Shown: in pieces, positions 24,838 through 55,400 of the stretch | Layout: the number at the start of each line of letters is the position of its first letter | Position numbering within the stretch: position 1 is the first letter of the stretch | IMG/VR virus record: IMGVR_UViG_3300035698_011365 | Span: 1-64,000 of that record | Strand: one strand, 5' to 3' | Origin: a virus | DNA: 64,000 nt | Program-made: the position numbers and the translations under genes | The notes under the pieces: model-generated | The model's database searches: none | The model's input: the letters and a program-made list of their open reading frames with translations, nothing else | What the model was told of the DNA's origin: nothing

Positions 24838-27800
24838 CCCCTAAAACCTCCAACGTCGGAGGTGTTCAAATACATGTTGATGCTGCCTATAATAATATTA
24901 AACAGGTAGCAGATAACCTAGAAGCATTACTAGCCTTAGAAAACTACTTCAGTAATATGAATGGAATTTATCTAGGGGAGTTTGCTTCTGCTCCTTCATT
25001 GAGAGGAGATACAACTGCTCTGCAGAATGGTGATCATTATTTTAATACTGATAACACCATTATGTACACTTATTTAGATTCTGCTTGGATTTATAGTCCG
25101 GTGTTTTACACACAAGCTGCTTTAAACACTGCAGTAGGAGCAGGCCCCTTTCATACTTGGGTTGCTTATGCAGATGATAACATCGGTACCGGTATATCAG
25201 AACAACCGGGAAGTAGAGAATATATAGGTTTTGCTTTAGGTAATTCAGTTGCTGCAGTTAGTATTTTAGATCCAGATATATTTAATTGGTCTAAGATCAC
25301 CGGAGCTGACGGCATTGATGGTGTCGACGGCGCTGACGGTGCGCAAGGAATCCAAGGCGACGCAGGAGCCGCTGGGTTAGATGGAGCAGACGGAAGTGAC
25401 GGAGCTAAAGGTGATCAGGGTGATCAAGGAATAAAAGGTGATACTGGAGACACGGGGGCTACCGGAGCCGCAGGCGGAACCGGTGCAACCGGTTCGCCGG
25501 GTATAACAGGAGATACGGGCCCTAAAGGGGATATCGGCTTAACTGGTTCTACTGGTTTAACAGGCCCTGCCGGAACTGATGGAGCTGATGGAGCAACAGG
25601 GCCTGCGGGTTCTGCAGGTGCTAAAGGTGATAAAGGTGATACTGGGTCTCAAGGAATCACTGGTGCAACAGGTCTCACAGGAGATAACGGAATTCCAGGG
25701 ACTGCAGGCTTAAGCGGAATAGCTGGCCCTGCAGGAGCAACAGGTTCTAAGGGAGACAAAGGTGACACAGGGTTAACTGGGTCTACTGGTGCAGCAGGGA
25801 TCGATGGAATAGACGGATCTGATGGCACAAATGGAACTAATGGAAGTACAGGAGCTACAGGAGCTACAGGTACTACTGGCCCAACTGGGGCTAAAGGAGA
25901 TACCGGAAGTACTGGTGCTACTGGTGCTGGAGGTTCAACTGGAGCTCAAGGCCCTCAAGGAATTCAGGGATTAACTGGAGATACCGGAGCCCAAGGAATT
26001 AAGGGAGATAAAGGAGACACTGGTGATGCAGGAGCAGATGGTTCTGATGGAAATGTAGTTATACAAACTCCTGTAGAACCTTCAAGTATATCTGTATATC
26101 CTTTAAGCGAATCTATAAGAATTACATGGTCTGTACCTAATTACTCAGGGCACTGGTACACTAAAATATACAGAACCACATGGGATGGCATTACTCCCCC
26201 GACTTTTGATGAAGGAGACTTCCTGCAGTCAGTACAGGGAGATTACTTTGACTACGCCGTAACTCCGGATACTGATTATTATTATTGGCTTAAACATGTT
26301 AATTTAGATGGAACAGAGTCTACTGTAAGTGGGGGCAACGGAACCAAAACACTAATAGGTGTCTCAGATGATATTGATTGGGTCACTCTATCTAATTTAG
26401 ATGCAGTTTTAGAAGCTAGATTAAATCAAATAGATACAACATTGATTGATGGTGAAGCAGGCTTATTAGGGGCTATGGCAGCTATAAGAGGTGAATATGA
26501 TATTCTTGACGCTGCTTTTGCTGATGTTGAGGATGATTTGATAGATGCATCAACAGGGTTATATAAACAGTTCAGTGATCTAAGTGAAGCTTATACCATT
26601 ACCGCAGGAGTTGTCGGAGACAACAGTGCCGGACTTGTTTTTGATGTAGGAGCTCAAGGAGCTCACTTCTTCTTTAAAACCAATGTGAATGGGCATATAG
26701 CAGGTTATGGGTTATCTAATACACTTAACGAAGAGGGTAATGCTACAGCTCAATTTGCTGTTTTAGCTGATGAGTTTATAGTAGCGCACCCAGATAATAC
26801 AGAGACTGTTCCATTTTATATATCTGGAGGAGTAACATATCTTACTGAAGCCTTTGTTAAAGAGTTAACTGCTAATAAAATAATTGCAGGTACTGTAGCC
26901 GCAAGCCAAATATATATTGGATCAGATCTCTTTGAACTTAAGGGAGATGTGAACTCTGAATCTAAAGGTGCGTTAATTATTCAGAATGTGGCCAAGACTA
27001 CTGAGTTAGTTAGATTGGGTTATTCTGCAGATGGGGCCAGTGTAGGTCTCTTCTTAAAAGATCATGCCGGTACAGATATTTTCACCGCAGGTACGACACT
27101 CGCAGGAGATATGTTAAACTCCGGAACGATATGGGCTGATGTATCAGGCACAACTGATGCTCCAGATGATAACGCTACAAGAGATGTTTACCAAGGTAAC
27201 TATGATGCTGGAACAGCATATATTGTAGGCGACACTGTTTTAGAGTCTGGTAACATATATAGAAATATTTTAGCCTCGACAGGTAATACACCGCCTAATG
27301 GGACATACTGGACGCTATTTATTACAGGTGGATTATTTAAAGATATTAAGTTTAAAGCAAGCGCCGCTGTACCAAGCACTCCTACAGGTGCTTCTCCGGT
27401 TGACTGGACAGATCATGTACCAGCAACAGGCGGAACAGTGTTCCAGTCATTCGCCCTTAAAGATCAAAATGGTTCTGTTATCGGGGCTTGGTCAACACCT
27501 ACAGTATATATTGGTAGATTTAAGGGTGCGTACAGTGGTGGTACGGATTATTTCTTAGGAGACAGTGTAACGCAAGGAGGCTCGACATATATTTGTTTAG
27601 ATGAAACTACTGATGGTATCTCTGGACAAGCCCCACCAACGGGAGCAGGAAGTAATACATATTGGGATCCTTTAGCTATTAAAGGCGATCAAGGTGATGA
27701 GCCAACGACATTTAATGAAACATTAACATGGTCTTCAGGAGCAAACCTAAATCTGAGAGATCAAGCAGATATTCTTGGTTATGATGGTGTCGGTGATGCA

Positions 27801-28451
27801 ACATTTGCAGTAACAGTATCTGCAGACATTATATCAAGTACCACTGCTAGTGCTGCTATTGATACAGGAAGCTGGCCGGGAGTTACTCTTGATCTTGATA
27901 TTATCGTAAATTCCGGTGTCGTTGTAAGAGGACGAGGGGGTAACGGGGGTGCGGGTGGTAATGGAGATATTACAGGTAATGGTGGTGGAGCTGGTGGTAT
28001 CGGTATCAAACTTAACGAAGATTGTAATATTTCTCTTGGTTCTACAGCTCGTGTCTCCGGTGGAGCAGGAGGAGGCGGCGGCGGAGGTGGTTATGAAGAT
28101 CCTGAAGGTGCTGGTGTTGGTTATGGTGGCGGAGGAGGAGGAGGTTGGCCTCTAGGAGCTGCAGGTAATGGCCCGGGAAGTGCTACTAACGGTACAGCAG
28201 GTACTGCAACAGAAGGCGGTGCTAATGGTACTGGCTTTAATTTCGGTGGTAATGGTGGTGCAGGTGGTGACAGAATATCCACATACAGCCCTGAAGCAGG
28301 AACAAATGGTGTAACAGGAGCAGCAGGTGATCCGAACACCAATAGCGGCGGGCCGGGAGGCGCTGAAGGTGACGCTATTGATAAAAATGGGTATTCGTGT
28401 ACTATATCCGGTGCAGGCTCATCAAATACATATGATGTAGTTTCAACTTAA
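24828..28451 (+). CDS. Tail fibre / receptor-binding protein
   Basis: N4-type anchor (AYNNIKQVADNL), ~250-aa collagen region, FN3-like domain, TipJ-like F.VLADEF segment, two YxxGDxV carbohydrate-binding repeats, Gly-rich tip. Confidence 0.88.
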   Translation: MAVTPKTSNVGGVQIHVDAAYNNIKQVADNLEALLALENYFSNMNGIYLGEFASAPSLRGDTTALQNGDHYFNTDNTIMYTYLDSAWIYSPVFYTQAALNTAVGAGPFHTWVAYADDNIGTGISEQPGSREYIGFALGNSVAAVSILDPDIFNWSKITGADGIDGVDGADGAQGIQGDAGAAGLDGADGSDGAKGDQGDQGIKGDTGDTGATGAAGGTGATGSPGITGDTGPKGDIGLTGSTGLTGPAGTDGADGATGPAGSAGAKGDKGDTGSQGITGATGLTGDNGIPGTAGLSGIAGPAGATGSKGDKGDTGLTGSTGAAGIDGIDGSDGTNGTNGSTGATGATGTTGPTGAKGDTGSTGATGAGGSTGAQGPQGIQGLTGDTGAQGIKGDKGDTGDAGADGSDGNVVIQTPVEPSSISVYPLSESIRITWSVPNYSGHWYTKIYRTTWDGITPPTFDEGDFLQSVQGDYFDYAVTPDTDYYYWLKHVNLDGTESTVSGGNGTKTLIGVSDDIDWVTLSNLDAVLEARLNQIDTTLIDGEAGLLGAMAAIRGEYDILDAAFADVEDDLIDASTGLYKQFSDLSEAYTITAGVVGDNSAGLVFDVGAQGAHFFFKTNVNGHIAGYGLSNTLNEEGNATAQFAVLADEFIVAHPDNTETVPFYISGGVTYLTEAFVKELTANKIIAGTVAASQIYIGSDLFELKGDVNSESKGALIIQNVAKTTELVRLGYSADGASVGLFLKDHAGTDIFTAGTTLAGDMLNSGTIWADVSGTTDAPDDNATRDVYQGNYDAGTAYIVGDTVLESGNIYRNILASTGNTPPNGTYWTLFITGGLFKDIKFKASAAVPSTPTGASPVDWTDHVPATGGTVFQSFALKDQNGSVIGAWSTPTVYIGRFKGAYSGGTDYFLGDSVTQGGSTYICLDETTDGISGQAPPTGAGSNTYWDPLAIKGDQGDEPTTFNETLTWSSGANLNLRDQADILGYDGVGDATFAVTVSADIISSTTASAAIDTGSWPGVTLDLDIIVNSGVVVRGRGGNGGAGGNGDITGNGGGAGGIGIKLNEDCNISLGSTARVSGGAGGGGGGGGYEDPEGAGVGYGGGGGGGWPLGAAGNGPGSATNGTAGTATEGGANGTGFNFGGNGGAGGDRISTYSPEAGTNGVTGAAGDPNTNSGGPGGAEGDAIDKNGYSCTISGAGSSNTYDVVST

Positions 28452-34286: not shown

Positions 34287-34625
34287 ATGTCTAATGATCT
34301 ACAACAAGTCGAAATCTCTATCAAACAAGCTAGAGACATGATTAAGAAAGCCAAACTCCTAGAACGTCTTTATAAGAACCCTCAGTTTAAAGAGCTTATC
34401 GTAGAAGGCTATTTAAAAGACGAAGCGGTACGACTTGTACTACTAAAGTCTGATCCACAAATGGAATCAGAGGAACGCCAGAAGCAGGTTGATATTGGTA
34501 TTGAAGGTATTGGTTCATTCTACCAACATCTAAACACTATTAGAATGCTAGGTAATAGGGCAAAACAAGATTTAGATGCACATGAAAACACTCGTGATGA
34601 GCTCCACGCTGAGGAAATCAACTAA
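34287..34625 (+). CDS. N4 gp58-like protein
   Basis: LERL..NP.FKELI.EGY..DEAVRLV; synteny. Confidence 0.88.
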   Translation: MSNDLQQVEISIKQARDMIKKAKLLERLYKNPQFKELIVEGYLKDEAVRLVLLKSDPQMESEERQKQVDIGIEGIGSFYQHLNTIRMLGNRAKQDLDAHENTRDELHAEEIN

Positions 34626-35836
34626 TGTCAGATGTGCATGAAAAGGAAGAGGTCGAAGAAGAAACTTTTCTAGACCTATCGGATGAAGAAATTTTAAACA
34701 TGGCTCCTCCAAAAGAGGAGCCTACACCCGAACCTGAAGCAAAAGCTGAAGAAGAACGGGGATCTGAAGAGAAGAAAGAAGAGGAAGAACAGCCGGAGCC
34801 TGAGCTCGAAGCTGAACAAAAAGAGGAAGAAGACGAAGGTGAGGAAGAAGAAAAAACCTCACCACTGGGTGCTTCTGATGATGATGCTGGAGACCCCCCT
34901 CCTGCAGAAGAAGAACCTAAACGTGAAAAACTTACTTTAGAGAAACCGGAAGCGGATAAAGAAAAAGAAGCTAAACCGGACGATAAAGAAGCTGAAGTTG
35001 CTATAGATTATGAAGCTGAATATAAGAAAATCATGGCTCCGTTTAAAGCTAACGGTAAAATGATGTCTCTTAATAAAGCTGAAGAAGCGGTGTCCTTAAT
35101 GTCTATGGGCGCTAACTATAACTTAAAGATGCAGGCTATTAAACCACACCTTAAAGTTATTAAAATGCTTGACAATAATAACTTACTTGACGAAAGTAAG
35201 ATAAGTTATGTAATTGATTTGGTTAAACACAATCCAGATGCTATTACAAAGCTGCTCAAGGATAGTGGTATAGACCCACTCAATGTTGATGTAGAAGAAG
35301 ATTCTAAATATAAGACTACTGCCGCTTACACTGTTACTGATAAAGAAGTAGAACTTGATTCTGTCCTAGATGACATACAGCATACCGAAAGCTATCAAGA
35401 AACAATCGACATCATTAGCAATAAATGGGATGAGCCTAGTAAAAGAATCATTATAGATAACCCCAATGTTATAACTTCAATAAATGAGCAAGTAGGCAGC
35501 GGTGTCTATTCTCAAATTAAAGATGTAATGGAGAGGGAACGAGTCTTAGGCAACTTAAAAGGCCTTTCTGACATCGAAGCATATCAACAAGTTGGTATAT
35601 ATATGCAGGAGAACCACTTATTCAAAGAAGATGAACAAAGTCCTCCACCTCCACAAAAGAATGCAGATACTCCCCCAGCCAAAAAAGATAAGCCAATCGA
35701 TCCAGAGCTCAAAAAGAATAAACTAGCCGCAGGTGGCACTAAAAATGCTCCGTCTAAAGCTCCTAAAAAAGAATATGATATTCTTAATATGAGCGACGAG
35801 GAGATTGAGAAGTTATCTGCAAATGATTTTAATTAA
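34625..35836 (+). CDS. N4 gp57-like scaffold protein
   Basis: Acidic N-terminus, PFKANGK, LMSMGANY..KM, LNMSDEE. Confidence 0.88.
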   Translation: MSDVHEKEEVEEETFLDLSDEEILNMAPPKEEPTPEPEAKAEEERGSEEKKEEEEQPEPELEAEQKEEEDEGEEEEKTSPLGASDDDAGDPPPAEEEPKREKLTLEKPEADKEKEAKPDDKEAEVAIDYEAEYKKIMAPFKANGKMMSLNKAEEAVSLMSMGANYNLKMQAIKPHLKVIKMLDNNNLLDESKISYVIDLVKHNPDAITKLLKDSGIDPLNVDVEEDSKYKTTAAYTVTDKEVELDSVLDDIQHTESYQETIDIISNKWDEPSKRIIIDNPNVITSINEQVGSGVYSQIKDVMERERVLGNLKGLSDIEAYQQVGIYMQENHLFKEDEQSPPPPQKNADTPPAKKDKPIDPELKKNKLAAGGTKNAPSKAPKKEYDILNMSDEEIEKLSANDFN

Positions 35837-35852: not shown

Positions 35853-37364
35853 ATGGTGCAAATTTATAACGATCCCGCAGGTGGATCAGCCTCTACGATT
35901 GGTACTCAGTTCCGTACTGACTACTACAAAAAGAAAGCCCTCATTGAAGCACGTAAAGAAACGTACTTCGGTCAACTAGCTGATGTGACTAACATGCCTA
36001 AGAACATGGGTAAAACCATTAAGTGTTATCACTATCTTCCTTTGCTCGATGATGCCAACATCAACGATCAGGGTCTAGATGCTGCTGGTGCAGCGGTCAC
36101 ACAATCAGTAACTATTGTTGTTACCCGCGCTGATGGCGGTATTCCTAACATCCCTAATAACGGCCGTTCAGTAGGTAATGCTGTTCACTTCGTTGGTGAT
36201 GGTGCAAATGCTGCCGCTGCTGAAGATGCAGCTGTTAATCTATTTATGGATTGGGCTACTTCTGATGTTCTTGGTGGCGGTCTTGCTGCTAGTGAAGCAA
36301 ACTCAGATGGTGGCTTTGCTACTGCTGTTCAATCAGGTGGTACAGTCTATGATGCAGGATACCGTGCTTCACAACCTAATGGCACATTGATTACTGTTGC
36401 TGCTTCTGCTCTAGAAGCTCAGTCAGTACCTCAAACTGGTAATCTTTATGGTTCAAGTAAAGACATCGGTGCTATCGCTGCTAAACTTCCAGTTCTTTCA
36501 GAAACTGGTGGTCGTGTTAACCGTGTAGGCTTTAAACGCCGTGAGATTGAAGGAACTATTGCTAAGTTTGGTTTCTTTGATGAATACACACAGGAAAGCA
36601 TGGACTTTGATACAGACTCCGAATTGCAAATGCACATTAATCGTGAAATGGTAAGCGGTGCTAACCAGATGACCGAAGCTGCACTTCAAATCGATCTACT
36701 TAACGGTGCCGGTGTTGTACGTTTTGGTGGTTCAGCCACTTCAACAGCAACTGTTACTGGTGTGTCAGGCCCATCGATCATTACTTATAATGATCTTCTA
36801 CGTATGAATATCGATCTCGATAACAACCGTACTCCTAAGAATACTAAGATTATATCTGGTACTCGTATGGTAGATACTCGCGTTGTTAATGCTGCTCGTT
36901 ATATGTATGTAGGTGCTGAATTGACACCATCTCTTAAAGCTCTAGCTGACACATTCAGTAATCAAGCATTCATCTCTGTTGAGAAGTATGCTAATGCTGG
37001 TATGGTAGCTGTTGGTGAGATTGGTTCAATTGATCAGTTCCGTGTCATCGTAGTTCCTGAAATGCTCCATTGGGCAGGTGCAGGTGCTGCAGAAGGTACT
37101 AACACAGGTTATCGCACAACTGGCGGCAACTACGACGTATATCCAATGCTTATTGTTGGTTCAGAATCCTTTACTACTATTGGTTTCCAAACTGACGGTA
37201 AGACCGTTAAGTTCAGTATTAAACATGCTAAACCGGGTTCTACCGAATCATTTGCGAATGATCCATACGGTGAGACTGGCTTCATGTCTATTAAGTGGTA
37301 CTACGGATCAATGATCCTACGTCCAGAACGTATCGGTCTATTTAAAGTGGCTTGCCCTTGGTAA
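35853..37364 (+). CDS. Major capsid protein (N4 gp56-like) with insertion
   Basis: [54 protein letters not shown]. Confidence 0.96.
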
Positions 37365-37447: not shown

Positions 37448-38020
37448 ATGACAGACCAAAACGCAGAAACAACTGTACCTGCTCCTAGCGAATTAGAAGT
37501 ACTTAAAGCTAGGGCAGTTACTCTCGGAATATCCCATCACCCAATGATAGGCGTAGACAAGCTTAGAGAAAAGATTAATAGTCAGATCTCTGAAACACTT
37601 CCAGAACCGGAAGTAGTAGCTGTCAAAGTCAACCCAAAAGAAGAAACAGAACTGGAACGAATTAATAGGCTCCGTCGTGAGTCTAATAAGTTGGTTCGTG
37701 TTGTTGTTACTTGCAGGAATCCTCAAAAAAGTGAGTGGGAAGGTGAAATCTTTACAGCAGGTAATAATGTTATCGGCAGTGTTAAGAAATATGTCCCATT
37801 CAATAATACAGAAGGCTGGCATGTACCTCAGATCATTCTAGATATGATGTATGACCGTAAGTGCCAACTCTTTGTTAATGGTAAAAATTCCAAAGGGCAC
37901 GATATCAAAGTGGCTAAACATATCCCTGAGTTCTCAATAGAAGTATTGCGATCTCTTACAGTAAATGAACTGGATGATCTAGCTAAGAGACAGGCTATGT
38001 CTCATTCTATAGATAAATAA
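37448..38020 (+). CDS. N4 gp55-like protein
   Basis: ELEVLKARA..LGI, LVRV.VTC.NP.K.EWEGEI, GWHVP. Confidence 0.88.
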   Translation: MTDQNAETTVPAPSELEVLKARAVTLGISHHPMIGVDKLREKINSQISETLPEPEVVAVKVNPKEETELERINRLRRESNKLVRVVVTCRNPQKSEWEGEIFTAGNNVIGSVKKYVPFNNTEGWHVPQIILDMMYDRKCQLFVNGKNSKGHDIKVAKHIPEFSIEVLRSLTVNELDDLAKRQAMSHSIDK

Positions 38021-38041: not shown

Positions 38042-40375
38042 ATGACCACTATTGCATTAACAGACCTGACTACTAAAGACCTCGAAGGTACTGGTATCTT
38101 CGATGAATTAATGTACTCAGTAGATCTCCACATCCACAGAGAGTTTAAAGCAAATAGAATTACAGGTAGTGATTATGCTAAAGCTTATGAGGGTGCAGTG
38201 GGTGTTGTGTTACAGCAATCCATTGCATTCCTTATGGGGAAAGATACAGCTGCTGCACAGACAGACCTATTAGTAGCTCAGACAGCTACTGAGGCTTTAC
38301 AAGCTTCTCTGGTAACTGCACAGGTTTCCAAGATGGGTAAAGAAGAGACTCTCATTGATGGACAGATTACAAAACTTGAAGCAGATGAAGAGTTAGTGGA
38401 TCAAACCAAAGCTAACGCCATACTCGAAGGTGTTAACATTCCTATTGAAGGAGCCAACCTTACTAAAGAAGGTTTGAAGACTCTGGAAGAAACATTACTT
38501 GTTACAGCTCAGAAAACCAAACTTGCTGGTGCCGATACAGCCTTGGCAGTGACCCAAGAACTTAAACTAGATGCTGACATCGCTCTAACAGGGGCACAGC
38601 AGACGAAACTAGCCGGAGCTGATACAAACGACGTTGTAGCCGCAACAGCGCTTAAAACAGCTCAGACAGCTAATACGACTGCAGAGACTACTAAGATTGA
38701 TGAAGAGACTGATTTGATTACTGCTCAAACCGGTAAGACAGATGCAGAAGCATCAGTGTCTACACAACAGGCTCTTAAGATTGTTAAAGATACTCTTCTT
38801 GTTGAAGCTCAAACATCTAAAGTAGCTGATGAAGAATTGTTAGTGGTTCAACAAATTCAGAATGCATTAGCAGAAGAGTCCAAAATAGATAACGAATCTG
38901 CTACTGAATTAGTTAAAGCTCTTAATATTGGTGCTGAAACTACTAAGCTTGCCGGTGTAGATACAGTTAATATGACGGCTCAAACAGCTAGACTAACAGC
39001 AGATACTGCGAAACTTGGTCAAGATGTTCTTGAAAGCCAAGCTCAGGTAACTAAACTATCTGGTGTTGATACTGCTCTGGTTACAGCCCAAACAGCTAAA
39101 ATAGGTAAAGATGAGGATCTAATAGATCAAGAGATACTTGTTAAGCAACAGGATGTGTTGGTAGCACAACAAGAAGTGCTGAACATGGCTCAAGAGGTAT
39201 TACTATCAACAGCTAAAGTTTCTAAGATGACAGAGGACACTGCACTTGTAGTAGCTCAAACAACTCAGTCAACTGCGACATCTGCAAACATTGCTGCAGA
39301 GACCCTTAAAACAACTGAAGAAAAAGATCTTCTTGTTCTTGAGCAGACTAAATTAGCAGGCCCAGATACTAACTTAGTTAACGCACAGGTATCAAAATTA
39401 GGTAAAGACGAAGATCTAGTTGATGCATCAATTACCAAGATGGCTGATGAAGAGTTACTTGTGGTTCAAAAGATCGCAGAGAGTGTTGCCCAGACTGCAG
39501 CTATTTCTGCTGAAGCAGGCAAGATCGCTGAAGAAGAAGCCCTTCTTACAGCACAAACTGCTAATGTATCTGCTAAGACAACTACAGAAGCGTCTACTAA
39601 ACTAAACATAGAAGCAGATACTTCACTTAAAGGAGCTCAACAAACTAAATTAGCAGGAGCAGAGACCAGCTTAATTACTGCTCAGATTAGTAAATTAAAT
39701 GATGAAGAGCTTCTAACAGTACAACAAACAGCTAAGACCTTAGCTGAAGTTGGATTGATCAGTAAAACTGAAGACAAGATGGATCAAGAGATCCTCAATA
39801 TGGTTCAGGAAGTGGCACTCTCCACAGCTAAAGTTGTGAAGATGGGTCATGAGGGAACTGTAATGTTAGCACAGTCTCTTAAAGTACCTGCTGAGACTGC
39901 ACTGCTTGAAGCACAAGAGCTCAGAACAGATGCTGAGACTCTGTTGATTGGTGAACAGACTGATAAGACAACTGCAGAAGAGCTCTTACTAGTACAAGAG
40001 AAAACCAATGCAATTACTCAGAACACGTTGATTACAAACCAATCAACTAAAGCTCTTTCTGAAGTGGCTCTACTTAATCAGAAAAAAGTATCTGAGGCAG
40101 CTCAAACAGTTGATACCACCACTTCAGGAGCTACTGCTCAAGTTGGTGCGGTTGCCGGTGTGATTGGTAAGCAAAAAGGACTGTACACTGCACAGACAGA
40201 CGGTTTCGCTAGGGATGCTGAACAGAAGCTCTCTAAGATTATGGCAGACATGTGGGCAGTGGGTGCATCCATTGAAGGTACAGGCTTTGCTTGGCCGGAT
40301 GCTTATAACCCTGCAACTACTTCAGGTAATGTTGTTGATGTTCTTAATAAAGCCAAAACAGGAATTGGCGCATAG
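38042..40375 (+). CDS. Tail tube (N4 gp54-like), greatly extended
   Basis: Conserved ends (GTGIFDELM, NRITG.DYA.AY; GVIGKQK.LY.AQ.DGF.RDAE.K) around ~610 aa of 14-residue repeats. Confidence 0.88.
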   Translation: MTTIALTDLTTKDLEGTGIFDELMYSVDLHIHREFKANRITGSDYAKAYEGAVGVVLQQSIAFLMGKDTAAAQTDLLVAQTATEALQASLVTAQVSKMGKEETLIDGQITKLEADEELVDQTKANAILEGVNIPIEGANLTKEGLKTLEETLLVTAQKTKLAGADTALAVTQELKLDADIALTGAQQTKLAGADTNDVVAATALKTAQTANTTAETTKIDEETDLITAQTGKTDAEASVSTQQALKIVKDTLLVEAQTSKVADEELLVVQQIQNALAEESKIDNESATELVKALNIGAETTKLAGVDTVNMTAQTARLTADTAKLGQDVLESQAQVTKLSGVDTALVTAQTAKIGKDEDLIDQEILVKQQDVLVAQQEVLNMAQEVLLSTAKVSKMTEDTALVVAQTTQSTATSANIAAETLKTTEEKDLLVLEQTKLAGPDTNLVNAQVSKLGKDEDLVDASITKMADEELLVVQKIAESVAQTAAISAEAGKIAEEEALLTAQTANVSAKTTTEASTKLNIEADTSLKGAQQTKLAGAETSLITAQISKLNDEELLTVQQTAKTLAEVGLISKTEDKMDQEILNMVQEVALSTAKVVKMGHEGTVMLAQSLKVPAETALLEAQELRTDAETLLIGEQTDKTTAEELLLVQEKTNAITQNTLITNQSTKALSEVALLNQKKVSEAAQTVDTTTSGATAQVGAVAGVIGKQKGLYTAQTDGFARDAEQKLSKIMADMWAVGASIEGTGFAWPDAYNPATTSGNVVDVLNKAKTGIGA

Positions 40376-40383
40376 GATAATTC

Positions 40384-42639
40384 ATGGTTCAGGTAATTGG
40401 AGTCTCAGTATCTGCACAGCCCTTGTTACAAGATACAGGGACTACCAGAAACATACTGGCTGAATATGTAATTAGTGCTGTTCGTACCGGTGGCTCTATT
40501 CCTGCAGCTGTTGTACAAGCCTCCAAAGTATCTTTCGATAATGATCTCGATGCTTTCTATGATTATGGGGAGGTCAATACTATCATTGGATTACCTATAT
40601 CTTTTAACTTTTCTGCAAGTGATGCTTTTGCAAACAGTAAAAGAACAGACGTAATTCAGCAAATAGCTGCAGACGAGGGAACCTCTACAGGCAACATAAT
40701 AATAAAAACGATTGATATTAAGTATGTAGATCAGACTATGTTATTTTTAGGGATAGTCTCTGAAGCAGGTCAGTGGAATTACAATACAAACTCTTTTCAA
40801 ATAGACGGAGGGTATTACCCAGTACCTAGAGCTTTTTGGAGAGGTACATTAGGCTCCGGAGGATTAGGAGGAATATATTATAATAGTGAAGACTCTTTTG
40901 GAGGTATAGAACCCTATATCTTTCACTATATTACTACTGATTATAAAAGCCCTAATACAGTGTTCTACCATATTAGGTATAGATTTAGGAGCGATGGTAA
41001 TAATACCACTAGATACTGGAACTATGAAAACGAATCCTTATCAGGAGGTAACTATGATGATCTAAATATAGATGCTTCTCTCGTTATAGGCGGAAGATAT
41101 TTTCCTGTGGTTCCAATAAGAGTAAACAAAGTATGGTCTGATGCCAGCGCCTACTTAAAAAATAACATAGCAGATATTAATAATATCCTTGCTTTCATTG
41201 GATTAGAGTATGAAAACCTAAAGACTGCAGTATCAGAAATAGACAGTGATGATCTAGCCAATGTAGATGATGTCGTTGTTATGCTTGCTTTGGATCTATA
41301 CTCAACTAATGATCATTCATTAGGGTACTTGTTTGAGCAGTTCAAAAGATATCATTATACTATTGATGGCGCCACTGAAGCTGAATGGTGGGCATGGAAG
41401 AATGAAACAGGTATCTGGGCTGCAGCAGGTGGTTGGGAATATACGGATAGACCTCGTAATGTAATTGATGTGAGATCTGCAGTTATAAAAATGAGGCTGG
41501 AATACCAGTATTCCACTGTTAGATCTATTACAGGAAATATTAATAGCTACGCTATACCTACTTTTGCAAACCACAGTTTACCGAATCAACCGGGAGGTAT
41601 TGAAAATCTGGCTGTACCGGTGATAGGGGAAGTAGTTCGTAAGATTAGATATGGTACAGAGATTATAGCAGGAGTGCAGAGTGGGCCCTACAGAACAGAC
41701 GTATTAGTCTACAGAATGCCCACATCAGGTAGCACATTCATTGAAGTAGCCATATTTGGGCCTAAAGCTATCTTTGATGTGCAAAGAGAAGGTTGGGGTA
41801 CCGATGGCCAGTTCTATAGGAAGATGGTCACAGGAGGCCCTGAAGAGGAGAGCTGGACTGATGGAGGTATGCTTGTTCCTATTTCACAGGATATATGTAA
41901 ACTTTTTAATAGTACTGATGAGTCAGCCCTATACAGAGAATCAGTAAGACTTGTTGTAACAGCTTATGAGATTGTTGATCTTGGTTTCTTTGCTAGTAAT
42001 ATATTTGCCTTTATATCTTTTGTTATATCTGTAGTATTTGTATTTATACCGGGAATTCAACAACTTGGATTAGCGTTAAGAGCTGCAGCTTTAGCCGGTA
42101 CATCTGCCTTCCTTGCTTTAAGTACTTATGCATTAACAGTAGTACTTAAGACAATTATAACCAGTGTTGTGATAGCAGGACTTGTTGAAATTATAAACAT
42201 TCTGGGAATAGATGCTGGATTAGTCTTAGCAGCTATGGCTCTTGTAGCTACTGTGGTTATGCAAGGTACGGGAGCTAATCTGGGTATGATGAATGCAGGT
42301 GATATGTTTGCATTAGCTGATTCACTAAATAAAGCCAATCAACAAGTAATTGCTAATAAAACCGGTGAACTCTATGAAGAGATAGAAGAATGGAATGATT
42401 ATGTTAGAACTGAGGAAGAAAGCTTTAGAGATGCTGCTGAAGCCCTTGATACAGGCAGCGTTAACTACAATCTTTATGATCTTATCACCCCACAAAGAAC
42501 TCTAAGTGTTGTAGAAGATCCCAGTTCTTTTTATAATAGGACTATACATAACACCAATCCGGGAGTATTATCTCTGGAAGTGGTGTCAATATATCATACC
42601 GATGCTCTGATATTACCAAAGCCAGAGAACGATTTTTAA
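40384..42639 (+). CDS. N4 gp53-like tail/structural protein
   Basis: YFPVVPIR, C-terminal hydrophobic helices, EDPSSFYNRT.H; synteny. Confidence 0.82.
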   Translation: MVQVIGVSVSAQPLLQDTGTTRNILAEYVISAVRTGGSIPAAVVQASKVSFDNDLDAFYDYGEVNTIIGLPISFNFSASDAFANSKRTDVIQQIAADEGTSTGNIIIKTIDIKYVDQTMLFLGIVSEAGQWNYNTNSFQIDGGYYPVPRAFWRGTLGSGGLGGIYYNSEDSFGGIEPYIFHYITTDYKSPNTVFYHIRYRFRSDGNNTTRYWNYENESLSGGNYDDLNIDASLVIGGRYFPVVPIRVNKVWSDASAYLKNNIADINNILAFIGLEYENLKTAVSEIDSDDLANVDDVVVMLALDLYSTNDHSLGYLFEQFKRYHYTIDGATEAEWWAWKNETGIWAAAGGWEYTDRPRNVIDVRSAVIKMRLEYQYSTVRSITGNINSYAIPTFANHSLPNQPGGIENLAVPVIGEVVRKIRYGTEIIAGVQSGPYRTDVLVYRMPTSGSTFIEVAIFGPKAIFDVQREGWGTDGQFYRKMVTGGPEEESWTDGGMLVPISQDICKLFNSTDESALYRESVRLVVTAYEIVDLGFFASNIFAFISFVISVVFVFIPGIQQLGLALRAAALAGTSAFLALSTYALTVVLKTIITSVVIAGLVEIINILGIDAGLVLAAMALVATVVMQGTGANLGMMNAGDMFALADSLNKANQQVIANKTGELYEEIEEWNDYVRTEEESFRDAAEALDTGSVNYNLYDLITPQRTLSVVEDPSSFYNRTIHNTNPGVLSLEVVSIYHTDALILPKPENDF

Positions 42640-46403: not shown

Positions 46404-49400
46404 ATGAGTGATACTGCTTCTGCACAAATTAACAATATATTAGCCAGTAGAGGAGAAACAGCGACTCCTACTACAGATACTCCTCAAGCACCTGATGCCT
46501 TAGAGAGAGCTATAGCTCGTAGACCTGAAGCACCTATGTCTCCTTTGGATCTCCGTATAGCCGCAAGGGATGCTGAAGCACGTAATGTAACCACTCCTGC
46601 CCTCAATGAGAGAGTAGCTGCCAGAGATGCACAAGACAGCGGTGTATCATCTTTAAATGAGCGTATAGCCGCTAGAGAAGCCCCTACTGTTACTGAAACC
46701 AAAGCAGCTACTATTACAGCTAAGGCACAAGATAAAGTAAATAATTTTGGCGGTAAAACCCCTTCTCCAGAAGAGGCACAACCACAAAGAAGTATGGAAC
46801 AAGCCGTACAAGAAAAGGCTCAAAAACTAGGGTTAGAGAAACCTGTTCCTATTAATATGTCTGATGTGGGTGATGAATCTATATTCAGAGAAATAGCTGA
46901 TATCCCTATCAAAACCGGTCAAGGTGCGGTTATGGGTGTTCGCATGATTGCTGATGCTATGGGTGCAGATAATGAATTATCTCAATCATTACGAGGTGTT
47001 GAAGACTACTTAGGTGCTCTAGTAAGTGCACAATCTAAAGAAGATTCTGCAGAAGTCTCTCGTATAATGGAAGAAGCTAAAAATAAAGGTGTGTGGGAGC
47101 AACTGAAAGCAGGTGCAGAAGCATTTGCTGTGGCTCCTATAGATTTATTAAGTAATGCTTTTGGTACCTCTGTTCCCATAATTCTTGCAGGTATGGCTAC
47201 TGTAGCCTCTGGAGGTGGTACTGTTGCAGTAGGCGCCTCAGGTGTGGCTCTTGGTGGATTAACCGGTGTAGGTGTTACAAAGGGATCTATATATGATGCA
47301 ACTAAAGAAGTTCTATTAGAACAGGGAAAGGTTACTCCTGAGCAGGCTGAGAAGATGGCTGTAGAAGCTCAAGCATACGATGGTGAGAATCTGGATATGA
47401 TTCTTACTGGGGGTGCATTAGGAATATTAGCATCTAGATCGGGTATTGAGCCCGGACTAATAACAGGTATGGGTAAAAAGCTGGCTCAGAGACTAGGTAA
47501 AGAAGTATCAAGAGACATTGCTGAAGGCACAATTAAAGAAGGTGGTAAGAGCGTAGCTAAAAGAAGTGCTTTAAAAAATATAACTGAAGAAACTGTTACT
47601 GAAGCAGCTCAGGGATCTCATGAACAACTTTCAGCTAACGTAGCTAAAAATAGAATTGGAATTGATACTCCATTAATGGAAGGTGTAGTCAGTTCAGGTG
47701 TTCTTGAAGGATTAGGTGGTTTAGGTGTCAGTGGAGTAGCTGATGCTAAGAATATAGTTGGAAAGACAGCAGCTAAAAGTGTACTAAATCTAGATAAGAA
47801 GCTTAAAGAAAGAGATGCTAAAAAAGCAGAAGCAGTAGCCAATGGTGAAGAACCAGCCCCTGCCGGGACTATAAAACAAGAGCTTAAAAACCTTAAGAAT
47901 GATGTTGTTGAAAAGTTCAGCAAAGCTAAACAAACAGTTACATCACAAAAGAAAGCAGTAGATGCACTAAAAGAGCCAGCTAAAGTAGCTGAGGCCCTTC
48001 AACCAGATAATGAGAAGTTCACTAAGGAAGAGAAAGTAATTCTTGCTACTGATAAGTCACGCAGGCCTGCAGCAGATGCAAGCCCTGAAGAGATACAAAA
48101 GTATCAAGGGGAAGTACAGAATGCTCTAGTCGGTTGGTACACTGAGGTACACACAGAATTTAATGAACTTGTAGCCAAGAGCCCTAAAGAAGAGCGCTCA
48201 CCTGCGGATCAAAAAAGAGTTAATGAGCTTTTTGAAATCAAAAGGGAAATAGGTGCCAAGATTAAAAACATTATTGAAGTTGCCAGAGATGACTCTAAAA
48301 CTCTAAAAGATTTTACAAATGCTGTAGACGATGTGAAGAAAAACTCATCACCTCCGGACGCTATTGTTAGAATTCTTGGTTCAACCGGCGGTAAGAACAT
48401 TCCTAATGCAGATCTCAAAAGCTTACAAGAAAGTGATATTAAGCTTCCTGAAAGAGAGAAGGCTATTCTTGATACTCAAATTGAGATCAATAACAAAGTA
48501 GAGGCCCTAGAAAAGAGAGCAACCAGTACTAAAAGTTCTGACTATGTTCATATGGAAGTGGTCAATGGTACTGAAGATAATCTTGGTTTCAAAAACTATC
48601 TCGATAACATTACCATAAGTGTAGAGAGCCAAGAAACAACTACAGTAAAGAAATCAGTCGGAAACTTTAATAAGTTCCTCAAAGGACATAAAGATAAAGC
48701 TGTTGATTTTGCTAATACGATCAAACTCGATAATGCTAATGAAAAAAGTAATACCGAAGAAAGTAAAGCAGCTTTGGATAAATCCGTAGAGCTTTTGAAA
48801 ACCAAATATGATTGGGATCATGAGTTTGCGGGTGCAACAATGAATGTGCTCAAGTTAATCAAGGATGAGGTGGCCATAGGAGAGGCGTACAGCACACAAA
48901 TACAAAATGTGGTGAATACTGGCGCCAAATCAACTGCAGTCCCTACATCAACGCCTAATACTGTTATAGACGATACTGTAATCTCACAGGAAGAGTTTGA
49001 ACAAAGTAATCAAGAAGCACCATTACCAACACCCGATGATTATGCAGGAACATCCGGGCAGGATGCCCCCCTTGGGGAGAGTGCCGGAGTGACCAGCCCA
49101 ACATCGGAAGTTCCTCTTAATCAATCCCCTCCGGATAATGCGGGAACATCTGGGTTAGAGACAGGGTCTTTGAGCGAGGCTTCTTTAGCCGAGTCGAACA
49201 AGACTGGGTCTATAACCGAAGATGAGACAAGCCTATCGGAGGGTCTAAAGACAGAATTAAAAGAGTCGTTGGCTGCTTTGAAAGAAAACAAAGAGAATGG
49301 TGGTACAATTACACCTCAACAAGAACAACTTCTTAAATTAAGTGAAAAGAGAATAAACGGCTTAACAGATACATCTTTAAAACAAAGACTAGTAGAAGCC

Positions 49401-52400
49401 AATACTGCTACTGCTACTGCTACTGCTACTGATAATGGCGCCACTACCACTAAAACCAGACCACTTAAGAAAAGAGCTGAAGGACAAAACAATAGACTTA
49501 GAGAATTCTATAAGGATATTGAATATGTAAAGAAGGCTCGTAAAGCTATTGCTAAGAAACAAGGTAGGCGTAAAGTAACTCAATATACTCCTATTGAAGC
49601 CGTAACAAATGCTATTATTAATAGCGGTAAAAAGATTGTTATGTCTAAAAAAGGTGCATATGACAAAATAAATAATAAGCCTACTAACAAAGAAATTAGA
49701 GGGCTGTTTGTAAGTGAAAAAGCAGCTTCTAAGATGAATCCTGACAGCCTTATAGATGCTGCTGACAATTTAGAACCAGATATCTTTAGGGATGCTGGTA
49801 TAGAACCTGAGATGGATGGTAATTACGTAAAAGCTTCGTGGTTAGCCAAAGTATTTAACGAAGGTACTTTTGATGTTAGAGAAGGCTCAGAACTTGCAGC
49901 AGATAGAGTAGTTGAAGAAGAGATAAAAAGAATAGAAGAGTTTGTTACTGTAACTGTAGGTACAGATGTAGATGCCCCTTCTGTTGATATCATTGAAGCC
50001 TTTAGAAATTATGATAATAATCTAGAAGGTGTCGTACAAGAAGAAGCTTCACAAGAAGAGGACGATGCTGGAGTGCAAGAGGATTCCCTTCGGGAATCCG
50101 ATGGAACGAATAAGCCGTCCGATACTACTCTGCAGGATAGGTTAATGGAAGATACAGGAGCACTCTTTAAGTCTGAAGAGGGTAAGCCTGTACATGTGAA
50201 AGATAACCATCTCAAGAAGCTGTTTAAAGTCAAAGAGCTTAAAAATAGTCTTAATAATGTACTACATAATATAGTGAGCTGGGCAGAGAACTATACTGAA
50301 GTGAACTCTAAACTTAATGACGAAGAGAAGGCTATGGTGAAAAACTTCATAGCTTTTGATAAAGGTATTAATAGAATTCTCACTCAAGGTACATTCACTA
50401 GAGAAGACGGAGTAACTACACAAACTCATAGTCCACTTCTTGCGGCTAATGAGGGTAGAGCATTAGCTTTCAAAAACGATTCGCTTATTAACTTCTTCTA
50501 CAATAAAGAATACGACAAAGAGAATCCGGATACTGACGTACCTCTGCTAGATCCAAATATGGTAACAGCAATGTCCTCTGTTCTTTATGAGTGGTTAGCA
50601 GTACACGGTGCAGGCACCCTGAGCATGGACTCAACCACTGTTGCCAGAACCATAATGGGTTCCGGTAATTCTAAAATTACACCTACAAAAGAGATGTTTG
50701 ATCTCTTAGGGGATAAAGGCACAAACCAGTCTCTATTAGCTGAACAACTAGGTACGAAGCTTATTTCATCACTTGGGTTAAGTGTTTCAGAAAACAATCC
50801 AAACAACTATGTGAGCAAGGCTGCAGTAGATCTGGGTAATGTAATATTGGCTGCAGGGTTCCAATCAGGAATGATTGAGAGAACTGTGGTGTTCACTGAA
50901 GATGTAAACAAACTTAAGGAAGAATACAGGCTTGCTGTAAAAGAAGCAGACGGCACTAAAAAGAAAGTCGATAATGAAGACTTTGATGAAGGTGACGAAA
51001 ATAGTGATTTTACTGATTTCACGGATCTTAGTGAAAGTGCGGCCGAAGGACAAGTATTCTATGTTCGAGTTAAACCTCATACTGTAGAAACCAAGCTTGG
51101 AAGTAAAATACTCCCTAGTCCCTATATACAAGACATAAGAAAGAAATATAAAGGAGGCCAACGAGCATTCCATAATCTATTTGGATCAGTAAGCCCGGAC
51201 AGAGCCCCTTCTTTCGAGAAGCCTAAAGAGAATACTGTTTCTCCTACAATTAAGAAGACAGACTTAAATGTAGCTGAAGAAATTCAAGAGATTCTTCATA
51301 AGAAGGCTCAAGAACCACATCAAATGAGTGACTCTTTTGGTGTTATAAAAGATTTTTCTGATGCTGAACTGTTTGAGTTGTTTGGTGGTATCAATGATGT
51401 AGATAAGAAACAAATAAAACTACAAGCCAAATATAACGCACAGAATACAGAAATTAATAAATTCATAGAAGACATGAGATTCTTCATAGATGGCGCCCCT
51501 AAAGATGACTCAGGGAACCTAACTAAAGATTTCTATTATGATTACGAAATATGGCGTAACAGCCGTATTGGTATGAAAAATAACATCATGAACTACCAGA
51601 GCAGTAAGCTTGCAAGACAGCTGGTTGCTCTTAAGTCTATGAAGGTTGATATCCCAACTGTTAATGAAGACTCCAATAATACTGACATGAGTGAAATACT
51701 TACACTATTTCATATGGCAGTGGCTCAGGGAATGGGCATAGATGAAGGTCTCTCATCAAATGAGATAATCGGTGAGCTTGAAGAACTAATGAGTCCAAAA
51801 GGCCTCTACGGAGGTATAATAGACCTATTGGTTCAGCAAGAACAGGGATATGAGTTAGAACCTAAAGACAGAGCTAGACTTATTAAGGCTACAGCCAAAG
51901 GCGGTCTTCATAAGATATCTGCTATTACGGCATGGGCTAAATACATGCAAGCAAAAGAGACCGGTTCATCTTTCTCTACTAATCTAACAAGAGAGATTGA
52001 TGGTAAAGTGAATGGTGTTGCACATGCATCTTTCCAGTCTACTTTTGATCAAGAAGGTAATCCTGTACGTACTAACTTCATGAATAAGACCGGCATATTC
52101 AGGAATAAGAAGCAGTACAAAACATCTAATGAATACTTCAATGATCCAAAGAATAAAGATGTTTATCAGGATGTGGCTACTGTTGTGGGAGCTAATGTAA
52201 CTGAGGCAGGTAATAAACTTAAAAAAGATCCTAAAAAAGCTAGAGCGTATCAAGTACATCAAGGAGCTTTAGGACTAGTAGGCTCTTTCTTTGAAGTTAT
52301 TGATGGTAAGAATACAGATACTGTTACTAAAGATGGTCGAGAATTCGCTAAAGATCCTGTGATCAAATTCATATACGGTGCTGAAATTTCCAGTATTACT

Positions 52401-55400
52401 TCTGGGGTTGTGGCTGTATCTATGAATAAACTCTATACAGATATAGAAAATACCCTAGGTGATCCAGCAAAACTAAAGATTATAAATAATAGCTTATCCA
52501 ATATACTTGGTAAGGATGCTAAACTTAATAGTGATAACTATTTAACTTATGAACTTAATAACGTGAGTATAACTGCTGAAAGAGATGTAAGAGAGGCATT
52601 AGCCAACACATATAAAGAACCATTAAGAGCTGCTCTTAATGATACCTTCTGGCAGATTAAAGCTGCTAAGAAGAAAATAGTTGAAGCACATCAATTTGCT
52701 TATGAATTGTTTGAAGGAGCTTACTATACAAAAGCCGCCAATGTACTTATAGGAAACAATGGTCAACCTCTTACAATCAAGCAAGAGGAGGATATCCTCA
52801 AGGAGCTTGCTCCATTACTTCCACGTATTGATACTGCGATATCAGACAACAGTGGGAAGAGTGGTGCCTACCTCTGGACTAAAGAGTTAACAAAAGATTA
52901 CGACAGAGTACACATGCAAAAACAGATAGCTGCTCTAGAGAATAGTGGAAGAGATCCTGCTGAAATCAAGATATTTGTTGCAGCTCTTAAAAAAGGATAT
53001 AAGAAACTTAAGTCCAACAGTACAACAAGGAATGAATTCTTTGCTAGAGGCAGTAAAGAGAAGATCCGTAACACCGGTTATGAGAGTAGACTAAATAAAG
53101 GTTCTGAAGACGGTGTAGGTAAACTAGCGGGATTTGCTCGTCACTACGAGATCTTCGAAAGCACTAATAAAGCATTTGTAAATGGTATTCATTCCCTTGA
53201 TAGTATGAACATGCTTGAGATATATGCTGAACTTGAAGCCATGGGTATTCATGATGCTATTATGGTTCCACTTAATACTGAGATTAAAGATGTTGCTTTT
53301 GCTAACCAAGCATTCTTGAAAGTAAATAATAACTACAACCTCAGAGCTGAGAGTATTAATAGGCTTGAGTCTACTATAGAGGCTTACGAGAAGCTTAGAG
53401 ATAACAAGAATAATAAGAAAATACCTTATGGTGTTGTTGTTACTCCTGCTCGTATTGCTGCTATGAAAGCTTGGATGAATGAAGGAGCTAAAGGAAGTGA
53501 TTTTGGCCCTAAAAAACAAGCTGCAGCGAGCCAAAAAACAATACAGAAAGATGTTACTAATCTTGCTAAGAATGGTTTAGTGGATCAATTCCAAGCTAAC
53601 CATACAAGTTATTCAGATAATGTTGATGGTGTAGCTCAAGGTGAGAGCATTAAGACTAAAGACTTAGATAAAGCCACTGCTAAAGATCAAGAGAAGCTTG
53701 AAAAGAAAGTAGATATGGATACTGCTATAGGAATTATAACTGAATTCCGTAGAATAGGTGGTAGCACCAAAGCAGGTATCAAAACTTCTGATCAATCAGC
53801 AGATGCTCAAATATATATGGGAATCCATAAACAAGACCTGAAGCAGGCTGTGGAAGTACTTAAATCTAGTGAAGAAGGTAAAGACTTCTTGGCTGAGGAT
53901 TTTGATAGTTTCCTTGGTTCAGGCCCTAGTGATTATGATGAGAATAACTTCAATCCAAATAAAATATGGGAAGTTAATGGTCAAGGTGCTTTAGACCTGT
54001 TTGATATGTTAGGAACTAAAGGTTTTGGTAACAAGCCTGAGAATGCAGAGCATTCAAAATATTTAAGAGATTTGCTTGTTAGTTTTGGTGTAACTGAATC
54101 AATAGATAACTTGATTATTAAGCTTGAAGAGACCGGTACAGAGAGTGCAGGCTATGCCGTAACAAGAAGTAACGGTAAGAAAGAGATTCATATGCTCTCT
54201 GCTTCCAAGGCCTCTGCTAATGGCATCCGTATGTCAGTACAGGAAACCTATGCTCATGAACTACTTCACATCTTGTCTGAGTCTGTAATTAATACAAGCA
54301 GCAAAGCCCGGGCAGAGCTCGATCGATTATTTAATGAAGTCAGGGATGATCCTACAGTAGATTATAGAGCCTTCTTGAATGATCCAAATGATTTAAGCAA
54401 TCAAGCAGAGAACGACGCTGCTAAAGCCAGATATGACTATATATTTGAGAATACTGAGACAAGACAAGAATCCATCAGAGATGACTCCACAGGTGAAATA
54501 CACACTCATGATCGTAATGACTTCCTTCATGAGTTTTTTGCACTTGGTTTATCTAATGAGAACTTTGTTAAAGCTCTTGCAGGCAGGTTCTCTACTAAAG
54601 AAACTAAACCAGATAATAAGACCCTTTATGATAAAGTGGTTCATATTCTCGTAAAGACTATGGGTTTATTTGATAAGAAGTATAATGATATCCGTAAGGA
54701 TAACATGAGTAATCAGCTTAAGTTTATAGCTAAAAGACTTCTACAAAACAAAGAAGTTTCCAAAAGCAAAGTTCAAACTTTTAATGCTATTACTCAACAG
54801 ATAAATGAGCAGGTACTTTATCCGGCTGTACGTTTTGTTATCGGAAGCATCAAAGGTGCTGCACGGAGTAAATACGTAAAGAACAACAAAAACAGAGTTG
54901 TACGTGATGTTGGTGAAATAATTGATAAAGCTCAATTCAAATATTTCTCTACATATTTTGCTTTCTTGAGTGATGTACGTAAAAGAATGGGTATCAGCGC
55001 TAATAACATCCTAAGCTCTATGTTTAGAGAGGTTGCCGGTACTACTTTTGGAATGCGTTTCTGGCATCGGATGTTGATCTTATCTAATAGAAAGATGGAT
55101 CAAAACCATAAAGCAGTGGATAATCATGTTAGAGCAGAGGCTCTGGGAGCCTATTTGGAGCTCACTGAGGCCGAAAACGTATCAATTACTAAAGGTGGTA
55201 TCAGAACAGACTTCTCCGTGCTGGATGACTCTTATACGCTTGCTGAGATAGCTGAGTTCTATAATACAAGTAACAAAGCAGCTTTGAATAGTGAAATTCA
55301 ATCTATTATGCAAAGGCTTCAGAATGCTTATGACCCTGAAGTTTATAACTTTTACTGGAAGATGTCTGAGAGCCTCGCTAATGTGATGGTTGAGGGCAGA

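Follow-up and report, generated by a model that had tools for sequence, protein, structure and literature searches.

The 64,000-nt stretch of viral DNA analysed in this work (the window; positions 1 to 64,000 of the IMG/VR record IMGVR_UViG_3300035698_011365) comes from a complete genome of 73,673 bp with direct terminal repeats (IMG/VR), and carries at positions 38,042 to 40,375 a tail-tube gene of the gp54/gp75 type whose 777-amino-acid (aa) product was 2.5 times as long as is usual in its family. Most likely (probability about 0.6), this protein assembles into a dodecameric tube about 80 nm long, down which each chain passes once, and the neck fibres of the same phage were lengthened to match. 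The source genome is that of an uncultivated Schitoviridae (N4-like) phage, an assignment based on the hallmark genes present in the window: portal, terminase, a gp67-like head-to-tail adaptor, the major capsid protein (MCP) and an open reading frame (ORF) at the position of the giant virion RNA polymerase (vRNAP), which is itself a hallmark of Schitoviridae.

The tail-tube protein, its repeats and its family

On sequence evidence, the 777-aa protein is a Schitoviridae gp54/gp75 tail-tube homologue with both terminal domains conserved. Its PDB matches were DEV gp75 (E value 1e-24), B2 gp34, N4 gp54 (4e-23) and the Moo19 tube protein, spanning residues 4-120 and 646/662-777. The N-terminal domain (residues 4-113/120) matched these four proteins with E values of 1e-21 to 1e-24, and T10, G16, G18, F20, D21 and M24 were invariant or almost so in family alignments. 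The C-terminal domain carried the motif G-[FY]-x-R-D-A-E-[QA]-K; Q718, R724 and E727 were invariant in both alignments (A1 and A2), and D725, K729 and K732 were invariant in A1 and almost so in A2. The five best Foldseek matches in the PDB were 9d83, 9lc0, 9zdw, 9bgm and 9d80, all with a probability of 1.00, and no other entry had an E value below 1; the extended shape of the chains kept their template modelling (TM) scores low (0.23-0.40, by target length). A preliminary description of this locus, made from the DNA letters, had reported intact gp54-type motifs at both ends of a protein more than twice as long as its N4 counterpart, and both statements were borne out, with PDB and phrog_2050 matches at the two ends and a length 2.6 times that of N4 gp54 (777 vs. 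299 aa).

Between the terminal domains lay about 615 aa of diverged 7/14-residue helical repeats, with just 3 Pro and 23 Gly in 616 residues. Self-identity of residues 75-690 at a lag of 14 was 0.211 (shuffle mean 0.095, z = 10), with further peaks at lags of 7, 21 and 28 and a strong one at 99 (z = 8.5). The motif TKL[AS]G.[DE]T occurred exactly six times (residues 159, 188, 301, 337, 436 and 535; shuffle mean 0.0005 in 2000 shuffles), and L[VIL]xAQ and AQxxK occurred 11 times each. Ungapped 42-residue self-matches reached a score of 101 by diagonal scoring (shuffle maximum 51); blastp of the protein against itself returned the trivial alignment alone. The central core (residues about 75-175) of short sister proteins matched the 777-aa protein six to nine times in succession, and the middle of the protein can therefore be described as about six copies of a module of about 99 aa built of loose 14-residue units. 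Offsets of long-distance self-matches were not multiples of 7, and register slips were frequent. The 14-residue repeats (about 610 aa) and six TKL copies announced in the preliminary description were thus confirmed, though as loose units with slips, grouped in about six 99-aa modules, and not as a regular array.

A similar repeat was seen in P0003, a 749-aa JGI metagenome protein in which T7-type “Tube” matches (PF17212, 1.7e-32, three stretches) flank a long repeat run; its near-perfect 14-aa unit, LITAQELKVDEETK, closely resembles the unit of the 777-aa protein. In an unrelated podophage lineage, it seems, a tail part was lengthened by means of this same helical repeat.

The 777-aa protein is far out in the length distribution of its family, but is neither alone nor the longest. 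A word-index search (5 matches for the full protein and 1 for residues 1-120) was too insensitive for such a repetitive and diverged family, and an exhaustive HMMER scan and an IMG/VR motif scan were therefore used; a single-protein locus search of IMG/VR gave no close relative. The HMMER scan, with the N-terminal 120 aa as query, returned 1788 representatives at E ≤ 0.001, and the 93 proteins judged full-length by their C-terminal motif among the best 150 of these had a median length of 313 aa, with the 95th percentile at about 460 aa and the longest at 606 aa. Among the 442 deposited phage genomes having a gp54 homologue, the longest (513 aa) belonged to Alteromonas phage vB_AemP_PT15-A5 (A5), followed by the 321-aa DEV group, and A5 was the best tblastn match among 50,697 phage records. 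The motif scan found 358 IMG/VR relatives with the C-terminal motif, and the best 80 of them included proteins of 921, 807, 786, 735, 680, 621 and 612 aa. Homologue lengths formed a continuum from about 200 aa. The length distribution, proposed as a check in the preliminary description, therefore put the 777-aa protein at the far end without making it unique (homologues of 735, 786, 807 and 921 aa).

All long forms shared the gene order MCP, gp55, gp54, gp53, with gp54 ranging from 257 to 921 aa among complete loci. The gp55-like gene upstream of gp54 was present in every locus listed and near-constant in size (172-204 aa), and the gp53-like protein mostly measured 717-850 aa in relatives, irrespective of gp54 length. 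In 18 of the 20 homologues that reached 450 aa or more (near-duplicates among them), the dominant internal repeat lag was a multiple of 7, as expected if duplications must keep the register of a continuous supercoiled helix; lags of 14, 28, 35, 42, 49, 56, 77 and 119 were seen in long homologues, and the units differed between lineages. Most long homologues, and a DEV-like protein, had strong period-7 power; over long range, that of the 777-aa protein was weak. On the MCP tree, the 14 rows with a gp54 of at least 500 aa required at least 9 state changes and the eight rows of at least 600 aa at least 6, from which the long forms are judged to have arisen independently at least 6-9 times. The source phage was sister to phages with tubes of 261-303 aa (Shimodaira-Hasegawa-like approximate likelihood ratio test 93, 73% MCP identity), and the 777-aa expansion is therefore specific to its own lineage.

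Tube geometry and the lengthened fibre

The N4 tube is made of 12 gp54 chains with the gp53 plug at the far end (PMC13434306), and the DEV tube of 12 gp75 chains (321 aa), about 330 Å long, 63 Å wide outside and 36 Å inside (PMC11445570); N4-like tubes have been described as single-layered helical 12-mers (PMC13730344). DEV gp75 contacts the adaptor solely via an N-terminal helix-turn-helix (PMC11445570), and the DEV plug, gp74, caps the tube end opposite the adaptor (PMC12892993). The wall of the DEV tube is 13.5 Å thick, which corresponds to one helix layer, and its overall scale (330 Å for 321 aa, 1.03 Å per residue) agrees with a rough geometrical estimate in which 12 helices at a radius of 25 Å are tilted about 40 degrees and rise about 1.15 Å per residue. 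With a one-layer wall and a rise matching DEV, each chain would traverse the tube a single time, end to end, and tube length would be set by that of the subunit.

On the model of N4 and DEV, twelve copies of the 777-aa protein would thus assemble into a helical barrel one layer thick, in which the N-terminal domain would dock on the adaptor, the chain would run once down the tube and the C-terminal domain would meet the gp53-like plug. The wall module of about 100 aa found in short relatives would be repeated about six times, giving a tube of about 80 nm by the DEV scale (range 60-90 nm) compared with about 31 nm expected for the sister phages. Tail length would then be set by subunit length without a tape measure, and would evolve by duplication of helical repeat modules. 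The preliminary description had counted 1.5 Å per residue and about 90 nm for the repeats alone; this had to be corrected to about 1.0-1.15 Å, a value that fits better because the barrel helices are tilted, and to about 80 nm for the whole tube. Its proposal that the subunit itself sets the length fits the solved N4 and DEV structures and gains indirect support from the fibre described below. The same description suggested, tentatively, that such a tube might cross a thick capsule or S-layer.

AlphaFold2 (AF2) with a 94-sequence alignment gave a mean predicted local distance difference test (pLDDT) of 72.6 and an almost wholly helical chain, with helices at residues 42-128, 142-190, 195-303, 308-438, 443-573, 581-689 and 707-745, and several of the breaks between them coincided with KLAGxDT motifs. 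The monomer model does not distinguish kinks from turns, or an extended from a folded-back chain; the run without an alignment was uninformative (pLDDT 44).

Long phage tails are normally stacks of rings, and a tape-measure protein determines how many are stacked; N4-like tubes are made in another way, as a single ring of twelve long helices. The sole protein with a “tape measure” label was the gp57-like protein, and its length did not track that of the tube: 403, 405 and 383 aa in the source phage, the N4-like phage SPSP and A5, respectively, vs. 777, 299 and 513 aa for gp54. A tape-measure protein scaling with tail length was therefore not found.

The best evidence in this work for a long tail was the joint lengthening of the tube and of a fibre encoded at the position of the gene for the N4 neck appendage, gp66. 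This 1207-aa fibre matched PF01391 (Collagen) with 59.6 bits (cut-off 27.2) and contained an uninterrupted G-X-Y run of 252 aa, which spans about 72 nm at the collagen triple-helix rise of 0.286 nm per residue. Three short-tube relatives had orthologous fibres (N-terminal domain 50-51% identical by blastp, post-collagen domain 31-41%), with only 36, 21 and 15 G-X-Y residues at the same site, and all nine IMG/VR fibres whose N-terminal domain was at least 51% identical had between 0 and 36. Paired with their tubes, the runs measured 36 aa in two genomes with a gp54 of 303 aa, 21 aa with 293, 15 aa with 291, none with 330, and 252 aa with the 777 aa of the source phage. With respect to a sister phage, the tube had gained 474 aa (about 49-55 nm at 1.03-1.15 Å per residue) and the fibre stalk 216 aa (about 62 nm). 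A fibre anchored at the neck must lengthen if the tube does, and joint expansion is therefore a prediction of the long-tube reading; if the fibre is indeed neck-anchored and functionally coupled to the tube, the added collagen-like residues would hold its receptor-binding end at the height of the tube tip. Total fibre length was rejected as a proxy for reach, since one short-tube relative has a fibre of 1921 aa.

Two other stretches of the fibre were observed: a CBM_5_12-like carbohydrate-binding stretch at residues 791-826 (27198-27305; E value 1.5e-5, just below the Pfam cut-off) and, at the C-terminus, a region very rich in Gly (residues about 1035-1207; 27930-28451). There are hints here of a polysaccharide receptor for the fibre.

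Weighing the alternatives

Several points weigh against a single-pass tube of 80 nm with matching fibres. Global Fourier analysis of the 777-aa protein found no long-range heptad coherence, which makes the 14-residue repeat a local one that slips in register. The AF2 monomer had a predicted TM score of just 0.28, and any of its breaks (residues 129-141, 191-194, 304-307, 439-442, 574-580 and 690-706) could be a turn. The paper on A5, whose homologue has 513 aa, calls the morphology of this phage typical of short-tailed podoviruses and states no tail length (PMC10579305). The lengthening of fibre and tube together counts as one event in evolution, and a second clade with long tube proteins (621-807 aa, vs. 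276 aa in a relative) has non-orthologous fibres. As evidence for anchoring at the neck, the match of the fibre N-terminus to that of B2 gp49 (residues 11-46 to 11-46) was weak (E value 0.039); N-terminal parts of the B2 tailspike have been modelled in the tail complex 9d83 (PMC11654681).

Of the alternatives, a folded-back or multi-layered tube of ordinary length (about 30 nm) survives best, but we consider it unlikely. Each chain would make three passes, only odd numbers being allowed since the terminal domains lie at opposite tube ends, and the extra region would form an outer layer, ribs or docking sites. The 12-mer helical tube of phage A1002, which carries a second, outer helical layer (PMC13730344), shows that such walls exist, and the AF2 segments are of similar size (109, 131, 131 and 109 aa) with breaks at Gly-containing motifs; all modules are, however, homologous to a single-pass wall segment, which an antiparallel pass would place in non-equivalent settings, and Pro and Gly are scarce throughout the repeat region. 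Folding back would agree with the report of A5 as a typical podovirus, but not with the family lengths, which are continuous instead of clustering near one and three times the usual size, and it leaves the fibre-stalk lengthening of about 62 nm in the same lineage unexplained.

It is more improbable still that the extra region lies outside the resting tube, being processed off, disordered or stored elsewhere, or deployed at infection, for example as an envelope-crossing extension. No protease site or domain boundary was evident in the protein, its modules retain the character of the tube-wall region, and syntenic homologues of every intermediate length exist; moreover, gp51- and gp52-like ejection proteins, which form the trans-envelope channel in N4, are encoded separately, and the lengthening of the fibre would again have no explanation. 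Nothing spoke directly for such a location, although the low heptad coherence and the dips in pLDDT at module junctions would permit flexibility.

With respect to the gene itself, DNA-level tandem repeats were absent from 38042..40375 and the copies were 60-73% identical in nucleotides; the expansion of the repeats is old, not recent, at the DNA level. The gene was found at 100% identity in two salt-lake metagenome studies (2017) and as two 151-nt pieces in a marine metagenome (2019) (runs X1-X3), which suggests a saline-lake or marine host; no RNA run with the gene was among the sequencing runs listed. Logan contigs of all three runs (two salt-lake, one marine) matched it without differences, indels or alternative joints, and one 1728-nt contig of run X1 covered most of the repeats without differences. 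A mis-assembled or chimeric contig with inflated repeats is thus very improbable: the genome is an uncultivated metagenomic assembly and read depth in public runs was low (2-7), but the copies are too diverged to mislead an assembler, independent fragments from the second salt-lake study and the marine study were identical to the gene, the record is terminally complete, and syntenic homologues of 612-921 aa occur on other contigs.

Gene neighbourhood, known systems and implications

The order MCP, gp55-like protein, tube, gp53-like plug, ejection proteins and vRNAP was present in the window (Table 1), and was shared with A5, a DEV-like phage, an N4-like phage and IMG/VR loci. The MCP was 54% identical to that of Pseudoalteromonas phage pYD6-A, and equally so to the MCPs of Vibrio N4-like phages. 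At 503 aa it was longer than in N4-like coliphages (about 400 aa), but MCPs of 450-512 aa were common among IMG/VR relatives, and the extra 100 aa or so are therefore a feature of the clade and not peculiar to the source phage. Where N4 has its genes for the ejection proteins gp52 and gp51, the window (42658-43386 and 43405-46386) encoded 242 and 993 aa, compared with 150 and 644 aa in N4 (PMC13434306); of the two, only the gp52-position gene gave a PHROG match, which was weak. A 1215-aa protein (17746-21393) had about 25 tandem repeats of about 23 aa (S-A-T-S-x-E-I-P-I-x-x-G-D-A) and a tail of I-E-x-x-D-R-T repeats; it had no match in Pfam or PHROG and is probably a second repeat-built fibre or spike.

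Table 1. Features of the tail-tube locus and of the fibre gene, with their positions in the window.
Feature	Coordinates	Strand	Size or extent	Basis or remarks
gp67-like head-to-tail adaptor	24136..24837	+	233 aa	phrog_2125 at 4e-54; kept in relatives
Putative neck fibre	24828..28451	+	1207 aa	Position of N4 gp66 appendage gene; tail-fibre PHROGs; Pfam Collagen 2.5e-16
Uninterrupted collagen-like G-X-Y run of the fibre	25302..26057	+	aa 159-410, 84 triplets	
gp57-like protein	34625..35836	+	403 aa	phrog_2120; PHROGs label “tape measure”
Major capsid protein	35853..37364	+	503 aa	phrog_1357 at 3e-134
gp55-like protein, upstream of tube gene	37448..38020	+	190 aa	phrog_2130 at 4e-61
Tail-tube protein gene (gp54/gp75-type)	38042..40375	+	777 aa	ORF; phrog_2050 1e-42; PDB sequence matches 9bgm, 9lc0, 9d83, 9d80; Foldseek top five
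N-terminal domain, presumed adaptor docking site	38042..38401	+	aa 1-120	Aligns to DEV gp75 6-114 and N4 gp54 51-169
Central helical repeat region	38264..40111	+	aa about 75-690	7/14-residue periodicity; about six 99-aa modules; six TKL[AS]GxDT motifs
C-terminal domain, presumed distal tip meeting the plug	40025..40372	+	aa about 662-777	Aligns to DEV gp75 217-321
gp53-like tail plug	40384..42639	+	751 aa	phrog_2220 at 4e-75; position as N4 gp53 / DEV gp74 plug
Giant virion RNA polymerase ORF	46404..57563	+	3719 aa	ORF list; position of RNA polymerase gene in Alteromonas phage A5

Among solved systems, DEV gp75 (PDB 9BGM, 9ZDW; PMC11445570) shared with the 777-aa protein the terminal domains, a helical middle that bears repeats and the gene order MCP, small protein, tube and plug, but it has 321 aa, a length of about 33 nm and roughly one wall module instead of about six. 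The long fibre of DEV (gp53) is encoded away from the adaptor, whereas the fibre of the source phage follows the adaptor gene. N4 gp54 (PDB 9LC0, 9YF4, 9YFT; PMC13434306) resembled the 777-aa protein at an E value of 4e-23 and in synteny down to vRNAP, and differed in its 299 aa and an extra N-terminal extension of about 47 aa. In N4, a gp64/gp65 sheath surrounds the tube (PMC13434306); among the window ORFs scanned there was no match to a sheath family, and no search was aimed at sheath proteins. The Shigella phages B2 (gp34, 206 aa, PDB 9D83; the best structural match of the 777-aa protein) and Moo19 (gp71, 279 aa, PDB 9D80) have tube proteins of the same family (PMC11654681), which are among the shortest in the range; for receptor binding these phages use tailspikes with esterase activity. 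Tube lengths were absent from that paper (PMC11654681).

The longest homologue in a cultured phage, gp25 of A5 (513 aa; OP481051; PMC10579305), comes from a marine member of the Schitoviridae, and differs from the 777-aa protein in being 264 aa shorter and in a diverged C-terminal motif. Four IMG/VR proteins, L071 (921 aa), L009 (807 aa), L028 (786 aa) and L006 (735 aa), shared synteny, terminal domains and a repeat-expanded middle with the 777-aa protein, but their repeat units (56, 63 or about 122 aa) and MCP clades were different, and their expansions are therefore independent of it. L028 (3935-6295) combined repeats of about 63 aa (nine heptads) with Gly/Tyr/Asn-rich non-helical stretches (Gly plus Pro 8.3% of the core), and its tube may have regularly spaced bulges or decorations instead of a smooth helical wall. 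The 55.9-kb record behind L071 (G001) was classed as a provirus by IMG/VR; N4-like phages are normally strictly lytic, and this class could be a misclassification.

Outside the N4-like phages, gp37 of Pseudomonas phage A1002 (PMC13730344) offers, in its published description, a likeness to the long tube proposed here, as an elongated 12-mer helical tube in a podophage; it is not N4-like, has 305 aa, and forms a double-layered tube of 24 nm with chain-like fibres wound round it. The A1002 authors suggested that the elongated tube helps to cross extracellular barriers (PMC13730344).

No paper on variation of tail-tube length in Schitoviridae, or on a long-tailed N4-like virion, was found in the literature. 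To our knowledge, the solved N4-like tube subunits are limited to 206-321 aa (about 33 nm in DEV). We regard it as an even chance that the tails of some Schitoviridae are rigid, non-contractile and thin (about 6 nm), measure 60-95 nm and consist of twelve continuous helical chains of 600-900 residues, with the length written in the subunit and retuned many times by module duplication, and with receptor fibres lengthened to match, in the source phage by collagen triplets.

If tube length follows subunit length, the subunit would be a ruler readable from sequence: tail length would be predictable from the gene, and its evolution traceable in metagenomes, in a family whose tube proteins vary four-fold in length through no fewer than 6-9 independent events. 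With a collagen-like fibre lengthened in step, the source phage would clearly exemplify the mutual adjustment of two parts of a tail. Testable predictions follow for cultured phages with tube proteins of 206-513 aa, together with a possible route to helical protein tubes of chosen length. If true, this tail-building principle would be distinct from that of tape-measured stacked-ring tubes, and would blur the line between podoviruses and siphoviruses.

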